A DNA stretch of 64,000 nt from Escherichia coli (GCF_044647545.1 NZ_CP172818.1), one strand, 5' to 3'; shown: positions 22,753 through 24,381, counted from the stretch's first letter. Notes: generated by a model from the letters alone, not told the origin. Program-made: numbers and translations.

Positions 22753-24309
22753 TCAGGCGTGTTTTTCCAGCCACACCGCAAACGGTTCGGTATCAGCGGC
22801 TTCCATTTCCTGCTGACGGCGTTCAGACGCCTCGCGCTCGGCGACAAAATCCTCTTCGCGCAGAATTTCCAGCGGCTCTTCACGCAGCAGATTACGGTAC
22901 GCTTCAGCAAACGCTTTGCCTGTTCCGCCAATACCAGTATCAATCATAGACCTTAAGATACGGGCAGAGAAAGTCAGATCGGGATTATCGAAGCAGGCGA
23001 CCAGTTCATCACACACTTTCTGATACGCTTCGCCGCCGTTAATGCTATCCAGCGTTTGCGCGACGCGTTTCAGATCGCGGAACAGATCTTTACCCACCTG
23101 CGGTAACGGGAACTGCGCAGTTTCGCAGCCGATACCCAGCGTCAGGCCCGGTTTGCGACCTTCGAGGATCACCCGGTTCCAGTTAACGCGTGTACAGGCA
23201 AGTTCGCTACTGCTCATTTCCGGTGCATCAGCCAGCGCACACCAGACCATAAACAGGTCGAGGAATCGCACCTGCTGTTCATCTACACCAATCGGCGAGA
23301 ATGGGTTGATGTCCAGCGAACGCACTTCAATATATTCAATGCCGCCACGTAACAGCGCATCAGAAGGCGACTCGCCGCTGCGGGTAACGCGTTTTGGACG
23401 AATCGGCGCGTACAGTTCGTTTTCAATCTGCAGCACGTTGCTGTTGATTTGCAGCCGCTTACCGTCTTTCTCAATACCAATCTTCGCGTACTCTTCCGAT
23501 GGCGTTTTGATTGCCTGTTTAAGGCCCGCCACGTACTCGTAGAGATCATTGAAGGTGATACCAAGATTGCTTTGCGATTTATTGGTATAGCCAAGATCGC
23601 TCAAACGAAGAGAGGTCGCATACGGCAGGTAATACATACCGCACTCGGTTTTCTCAAACGGCAGCGACGTTGGTTTTCCTTGCAAGAAAGAAGAACAAAT
23701 CGCTGGAGACGCACCAAACAGATAAGGAATGACCCAACCGAAACGATAGTAATTGCGGATAACGCGGAAATAGCCCGCAGAAATTTTCTCTTTGGCATCA
23801 GCGCCCGAGATATCACCGCACTTCGCTTGCCAGAATGCCATTGGCAAAGAGAAATTGTAGTGCACGCCGGAAATGGTTTGCATCAGCGCGCCGTAGCGAT
23901 TTTTCAGCCCTTCACGATACAGCGTTTTAAAGCGTCCGGTGTTAGAAGTGCCGTACTGTGCCAGTTCGATGTCCTGACCTTCTGCGATGTAGCATGGCAT
24001 ACTTAACGGCCACATCCGCTCATCGCCCATATTGCGCGCCGTATAACGATGCAGATCGCGCATAAAGGTCAACATATGTTCAATATCACCATCCACTGGT
24101 GTAATGAATTCCAGCAATGCTTCCGCAAAATCGGTAGTAATCCATTTGTGCGTCAGTGCGGAACCTAATGCTTCAGGATGACCTGTTGTTGCCAGTGTTC
24201 CATCAGCATTAACACGCAAAGTTTCGCGTTCCAGCCCACGCTGTATCCCCTTTAACGCCTGAGGATGTTTTTCCAGCCAGGCCAGCGCCTGTGATACGTC
24301 CGGGATCAA
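22753..24309 (-). CDS. gshA: glutamate-cysteine ligase
   Basis: ORF track 22753..24309, 518 aa; recognised GshA; initiation codon in sequence is TTG (plus-strand caa at 24307-24309) preceded by GGGAGGT RBS. Confidence 0.95.
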
Positions 24310-24381
24310 ATTGACCTCCCGCCTGTCAAAATCGTTTTAATTAGCATAACTGTAATGGTGACCATATGTGCAGGCCTACAA

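Follow-up and report, generated by a model that had tools for sequence, protein, structure and literature searches.

We analysed a 64,000-nucleotide stretch of Escherichia coli DNA (NZ_CP172818.1), hereafter the window, in which the genes around gshA are arranged in the order emrRAB - luxS - micA - gshA - yqaA - yqaB - tRNA cluster - csrA. The gshA frame, on the minus strand, has the same ends as the 1557-nt RefSeq/PGAP coding sequence WP_000611804.1, and the features of its initiation region are collected in Table 1. The MicA sRNA (RF00078, 83.9 bits) is encoded on the plus strand at 22672-22743, with a terminator hairpin at 22722-22739; its gene is flanked by luxS and gshA, both of which are transcribed in the other direction, as the literature describes. 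Upstream of yqaB, the minus strand carries four tandem tRNA-Arg genes with identical covariance-model scores and one tRNA-Ser (25653-26245), and csrA and alaS lie beyond this cluster in the standard E. coli arrangement. Several complete E. coli genomes, clinical and animal isolates among them, match the 2.3 kb around the gshA start with 100% identity, and 5424 of the 5426 complete genomes of the species contain this region. Around gshA the window is likewise 100% identical to the FDAARGOS_497 record, but the two are not colinear over the first 50 kb (52% positional identity); coordinates match solely between about 8.5 and 25.4 kb, so the two strains differ by indels elsewhere.

Table 1. Features of the gshA gene and its initiation region in the window
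Feature	Coordinates	Strand	Remarks
gshA CDS, glutamate--cysteine ligase	22753..24309	minus	518 codons plus stop; ORF listing, RefSeq, profiles, PDB
TTG (UUG) initiation codon of gshA	24307..24309	minus	first start-type codon after the in-frame TAA
Shine-Dalgarno GGGAGGT	24314..24320	minus	4 nt 5' of the gshA TTG
In-frame TAA stop	24337..24339	minus	10 codons 5' of the gshA TTG; closes the frame
Next in-frame ATG, codon 79 of gshA	24073..24075	minus	rejected alternative start; SD -6.8 kcal/mol
Conserved initiation region	24271..24328	minus	about -19 to +39 relative to the TTG; includes synonymous sites of codons 2-13
TATGCT, putative sigma-70 -10 hexamer of the gshA promoter	24343..24348	minus	conservation; contains an ATG, not a start

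The product of this frame is a type 1 glutamate--cysteine ligase, with full-length matches to curated models above their cut-offs: it scored 916.5 bits against the TIGR01434 equivalog (cutoff 393.3), with residues 6-517 covering profile positions 1-512, and 564.5 bits against PF04262 (cutoff 27). It also matched the solved E. coli enzyme (PDB 1V4G, 1VA6, 2D32 and 2D33) colinearly from residue 1 to 518. The chain of that enzyme starts MIPDVSQ, and the sole differences from the crystallised construct were Cys->Ser substitutions.

Read on the minus strand, the start of the gene is GACAGGC GGGAGGT CAAT TTG ATC CCG GAC GTA. A first-pass annotation of this DNA had proposed that the 518-residue GshA frame opens with a TTG, seen as CAA on the plus strand at 24307-24309, that a strong GGGAGGT Shine-Dalgarno (SD) sequence precedes it at proper spacing, and that the next in-frame ATG is far downstream. 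The coordinates were confirmed in each respect: the CAA is the complement of the TTG (24309..24307), the spacer is 4 nt from GGGAGGT, or 5 nt counted from the GGAGG core, and the next in-frame ATG is codon 79 (24075..24073). That account had omitted the in-frame TAA ten codons upstream (24339..24337). There is no ATG, GTG or TTG between this stop and the TTG, and the stop rules out an N-terminal extension of GshA in E. coli.

To score the SD, the 19 nt 5' of each candidate start were paired with the 16S rRNA 3' tail ACCUCCUUA. The gshA duplex reached -11.0 kcal/mol, with seven consecutive pairs to the 16S rRNA 3' end, and ranked second strongest among the annotated starts scored. Only 0.05% of 12000 random window positions reached this value, as did just one of the 1939 TTG triplets on both strands of the window, the gshA start itself; chance does not account for the SD-TTG arrangement. 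Among the other in-frame candidates within 110 codons, the best was a CTG at -7.8 kcal/mol, and the nearest in-frame canonical alternatives, TTG31, TTG65 and GTG72, scored -4.2 kcal/mol or weaker. No in-frame candidate was therefore better supported than the UUG, all downstream candidates having an SD of -7.8 kcal/mol or weaker. Folding of the -35..+40 region around the start gave no significant structure (z = -0.49). A weak hairpin of 5-7 bp was predicted between the SD and the stretch formed by the start codon and codons 2-3; covariation is uninformative for it because the paired bases are invariant, and with the folding z of -0.49 we do not propose a structural switch at the gshA start. A second annotated TTG start in the window belongs to nrdE (9210-9212, plus strand), where TTG GCA ACG ACA ACC reads MATTT. 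It has AAAGGAG 9 nt upstream and overlaps the end of nrdI, and an in-frame ATG at codon 14 is a possible alternative.

The TTG start of E. coli gshA and its effect are already known: the start has been annotated, cited and mutagenised, and Watanabe et al. reportedly pointed it out when they sequenced the gene in 1986. UUG is one of the three canonical start codons, and the initiator tRNA reads it with a first-position mismatch and still inserts fMet. It is the start codon of 3% of genes in E. coli and, over 79 bacterial genomes, of 4.35%; these published base rates were used for comparison in preference to window-local ones. According to a published study of start codons, initiation at UUG reaches 10-100% of that at AUG and varies with context, and another study puts expression from GTG and TTG 8- to 12-fold below that from ATG (PMC11445065).

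For gshA itself, the consequences of the codon have been measured by one laboratory, using plasmid fusions in a polyamine-auxotrophic strain: changing UUG to AUG raised the baseline synthesis of a GshA-LacZ fusion 3.0-fold, and polyamine stimulation was 2.4-fold with UUG and 1.1-fold with AUG, a modest effect of 2-3 fold (Sakamoto et al. 2015, PMC4405209). GshA protein rose 3.0-fold with polyamines, at the translational level and mainly in stationary phase under tellurite stress, and a gshA(ATG) plasmid measurably altered growth and viability without polyamines under tellurite stress (PMC4405209). The loss of polyamine stimulation on changing UUG to AUG places gshA in the inefficient-codon class of the polyamine modulon, and the gene has been classed under inefficient initiation codon with a normal position of the SD (PMC7177335). 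The gene in the window has both features of this class, with the UUG codon at 24309..24307 and the SD at the normal distance of 4-5 nt. That a weak start limits translation, as the first-pass annotation had supposed, is borne out by the 3.0-fold rise; the reading is right but incomplete, since the weak codon also confers polyamine responsiveness. Two other genes of the modulon, both of the distant-SD class (PMC4405209, PMC7177335), lie within about 20 kb of gshA: emrR (18640-19170, plus strand) and stpA (4083-4487, minus strand, in the coordinates of the FDAARGOS_497 record). Their proximity may be a coincidence.

The mechanism is made up of steps that have been demonstrated or are standard. 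The strong SD GGGAGGU, 4-5 nt 5' of the UUG, positions the 30S subunit, and fMet-tRNA then reads the UUG with a first-position mismatch, so that the protein still begins with Met but initiation is less efficient than at AUG. The weak codon keeps the basal production of gamma-glutamylcysteine synthetase, which catalyses the first step in making glutathione, at a low level. It is partly compensated by the strong SD, in keeping with the general pattern described by Belinky et al. [quoted passage not shown] We hold with high confidence that E. coli gshA mRNA is translated from the UUG and that the weak codon throttles its output and confers the polyamine response.

The first-pass annotation had suggested a comparison of orthologue start codons, and we ran it at increasing distances. 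Within E. coli, a megablast with a 33-nt stretch spanning the SD and the TTG gave fully identical matches in 5417 of the 5426 complete genomes; every possible 28-nt exact seed word contains the TTG and at least six of the seven SD bases. In 51 other species of Enterobacteriaceae and Erwiniaceae, with protein identities of 64-99%, the codon at residue 1 is TTG in 49, GTG in two and ATG in none; the two GTG starts belong to the two most divergent of the 51. The SD is invariant across the Enterobacteriaceae, and the block GACAGGCGGGAGGTCAAT-TTG-ATCCCGGACGTATCA is almost invariant across enterobacterial gshA.

The conservation extends into the coding sequence. The majority codon was used at 96% over codons 2-7, at 93% over codons 2-11 and at about 60% from codon 22 on (codons 22-100). 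Across the 52 enterobacterial sequences, hardly any change is seen in the 19 nt before the start or at synonymous sites within codons 2-13. This degree of constraint at 24271-24328 exceeds what the SD and the start codon by themselves need, and an unrecognised binding site for an sRNA or a protein could lie there.

For more distant relatives, we examined 11 representatives of 50%-identity clusters, those with retrievable DNA, which are 44-51% identical to E. coli GshA; seven start with TTG and four with ATG. One of the TTG starts comes from a 21%-GC genome of 697,724 bp (BA000021.3), which we take to be that of the tsetse endosymbiont Wigglesworthia. Metagenome contigs were scanned with a DNA pattern encoding L-T-H-x-x-I-T-T-D-Y-S-E, a variant present in distant GshAs and absent from Enterobacteriaceae. 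The scan yielded 80 readable gshA loci, 78 of them usable and 72 distinct at 90% identity or less, with a GC content of 33-71%. Starts in these loci were deduced from sequence only, with the conserved G-x-E-[RK]-E (E. coli residues 25-29) as the anchor and no gene caller.

In 39 of the 72 loci there is no in-frame ATG between the upstream stop and the anchor, so that a non-ATG start is forced there. A start-type codon lies exactly 26 codons 5' of the anchor in 42 of 70 loci (29 TTG, 8 GTG, 5 ATG), and the counts at other positions are 0-7. When the start was chosen by the best SD, blind to the codon, TTG was selected in 37 of 71 loci, ATG in 24 and GTG in 10; when ATG was taken whenever available, TTG was still selected in 36 of 71. 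Depending on the rule, ATG was thus chosen in 24-29 of the 71, so members of the family can do without a weak start.

Both rules were also run on 270 further long ORFs from these contigs, where TTG was chosen in 18% (best SD) and 11.5% (ATG first). The enrichment of TTG in gshA over these controls corresponds to odds ratios of 4.9 (Fisher p 3e-8) and 7.9 (9e-12), respectively, with p-values that treat related sequences as independent and so overstate their independence, and with a crude control rule. The SDs of distant gshA were stronger at TTG starts (median -5.1 kcal/mol) than at ATG starts (-3.65 kcal/mol; one-sided Mann-Whitney p = 0.002), which matches the compensation described by Belinky et al. 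Five distant loci (L063, L065, L077, L095 and L121) read ATG TTG, with the TTG at the modal start position of the family; it looks as if in these the ATG was acquired beside an ancestral TTG.

We considered whether translation might begin elsewhere. A start further downstream, at ATG79, TTG31, TTG65 or GTG72, would give a shorter protein and make the TTG an accidental first start-type codon. Of E. coli genes, 83% use ATG, the preferred start, and an ORF listing by itself cannot tell the gshA starts apart. The downstream candidates, however, have SDs of only -2.8 to -6.8 kcal/mol against -11.0 at the TTG; residues 1-78 are conserved as protein in orthologues, with synonymous variation from about codon 14 on; the TIGR01434 profile already begins at residue 6; and the solved enzyme is the full 518-residue chain, residues 1-78 included. 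A GshA-LacZ fusion limited to codons 1-38 is nevertheless translated, and mutating its UUG to AUG alters its synthesis (PMC4405209), which rules out a start at ATG79. We found no direct N-terminal sequencing or initiation-site profiling of GshA in the literature searched, and gshA is absent from the TRAINSPOTTER N-terminomics supplements. With the RefSeq coding sequence, the PDB chain, the TIGR01434 profile and the 38-codon fusion in agreement on the UUG, a downstream start is effectively refuted and its probability negligible. Upstream, the candidate is the ATG embedded in TTATGCT (24347..24345), which might open a 13-codon uORF coupled to the TTG or, in some genera, be the true start of a GshA longer by 13 residues (531 aa). 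This ATG is invariant: T-A-T-G-[C/A]-T was found in all 40 distinct enterobacterial upstream regions in a gapped alignment. In E. coli the 13-codon frame that it opens, about 38 nt 5' of the TTG, ends in a TGA overlapping the start codon (TTGA), and Buttiauxella and Cedecea have the ATG in the gshA frame; databases contain products of 527-531 aa that begin MLNKNEFDRREV(K/N)-L-IPDVSQ. Against a role in translation, the frame is not conserved: 1-nt indels leave the ATG out of frame (+2) in 39 loci and bring it into frame in 11. The 15-20 nt after TATGCT are variable with indels, and no part of the region is less conserved than the stretch from ATG to SD. An extended GshA would moreover translate the invariant SD as 'DRREV', and in E. 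coli the in-frame TAA blocks any extension. The hexamer is typical of a -10 element, which would put the ATG 5' of the transcript start. A simple promoter scan of the window did not call TATGCT; from its conservation we infer that it is a promoter element acting as the -10 hexamer. We rate a functional ATG as very improbable, and rejected uORF-mediated coupling at gshA because neither the frame nor the stop/start overlap is conserved across the 39 out-of-frame and 11 in-frame loci. In Buttiauxella, Cedecea and some relatives (loci L030-L033, L035, L037, L041, L042, L045, L046 and L051), it is a 1-nt insertion that puts the ATG in frame. The products of 527-531 aa (P0104, P0106, P0111 and P0116) translate the gshA TTG as Leu and are probably systematic mis-annotations by gene callers.

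With the UUG as the start, the question becomes whether the weak codon is selected. It could be an inherited, nearly neutral state that is tolerated thanks to the strong SD. Selection on start codons is weak overall, and stronger SDs commonly make up for sub-optimal starts (Belinky et al.); on gshA, replacing UUG by AUG has an effect of only about 3-fold (PMC4405209), and a third or more of the distant orthologues use ATG. Set against this are the TTG at the same position in lineages with 44-51% GshA identity and 21-71% GC, the 5- to 8-fold odds enrichment over same-contig controls, and the effect of the gshA(ATG) plasmid on growth and viability without polyamines under tellurite stress (PMC4405209). 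The reading as a neutral relic is hard to square with the control enrichment and with the absence of ATG from all 51 enterobacterial species, though a single T->A change would give the generally favoured codon, AUG being the optimum under selection (Belinky et al.), and we consider it unlikely. The TTG start appears instead to be old and preferentially retained, a qualitative conclusion that is robust. From its retention at the same position through most of the Proteobacterial gshA family we infer selection for a throttled or regulatable start. The broadest form of this reading is that the UUG start is an ancient, actively maintained trait of Proteobacterial type-1 gshA, held at a fixed position, usually with a stronger-than-average SD and even in a 21%-GC endosymbiont genome, and that throttling responsive to polyamines or initiation factors is general in glutathione control; we judge this to be about as likely as not.

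In about half of the distant gshA genes the start is a TTG at the same position, a frequency several times that in neighbouring genes. The long persistence of a weak start speaks for a benefit to the cell in capping the first and rate-limiting step of glutathione synthesis, or in gating it conditionally, at initiation. If the broad reading is true, initiation throttling would be a general design feature of glutathione control and not an E. coli peculiarity. The gene also offers a clean natural test case for selection favouring sub-optimal start codons. There are practical consequences as well. For glutathione overproduction, changing TTG to ATG in gshA offers an easy gain of about 3-fold. For annotation, an upstream ATG that falls in frame leads gene callers to a probably wrong 531-aa GshA. 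In the literature searched, an incomplete library, we found no description of family-wide TTG conservation in gshA, the matches being E. coli polyamine papers only; its conservation at a fixed position may be a new, if modest, comparative addition.

The gene in the window is the same as gshA of E. coli K-12 and B (gsh-I, b2688), with the same TTG, SD and context (emrRAB-luxS-micA-gshA-yqaA-yqaB) and an identical or near-identical protein. Nothing of substance differs; the window is from a non-K-12 strain. Among the members of the polyamine modulon, gshA resembles cya, cra, spoT, uvrY and frr in combining a non-AUG start with a normally placed SD (PMC4405209, PMC7177335). In the inefficient-codon members, as in gshA, a swap to AUG raises the baseline and removes the stimulation, and gshA is the member tied to oxidative stress and stationary phase (PMC4405209).

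A poor start codon that serves as a regulatory input to translation initiation is also known from infC, the gene for IF3, which starts with AUU. This codon is discriminated against by IF3 itself, which creates a feedback loop. The likeness to gshA lies in a deliberately poor start; unlike AUU, UUG is a canonical start, and dependence on IF3 is a feature of infC, whose start has been listed as one of just two non-canonical starts confirmed in E. coli. Also comparable are the GTG of lacI and the other non-ATG starts of carbohydrate regulators, which, like the gshA start, are conserved across genera of Enterobacteriaceae and have been argued to tune expression adaptively (PMC11445065). The study of these conserved starts does not mention gshA, which differs from the lacI set in gene and codon; its TTG reaches relatives of less than 50% identity, whereas the lacI set was traced within one family (PMC11445065).
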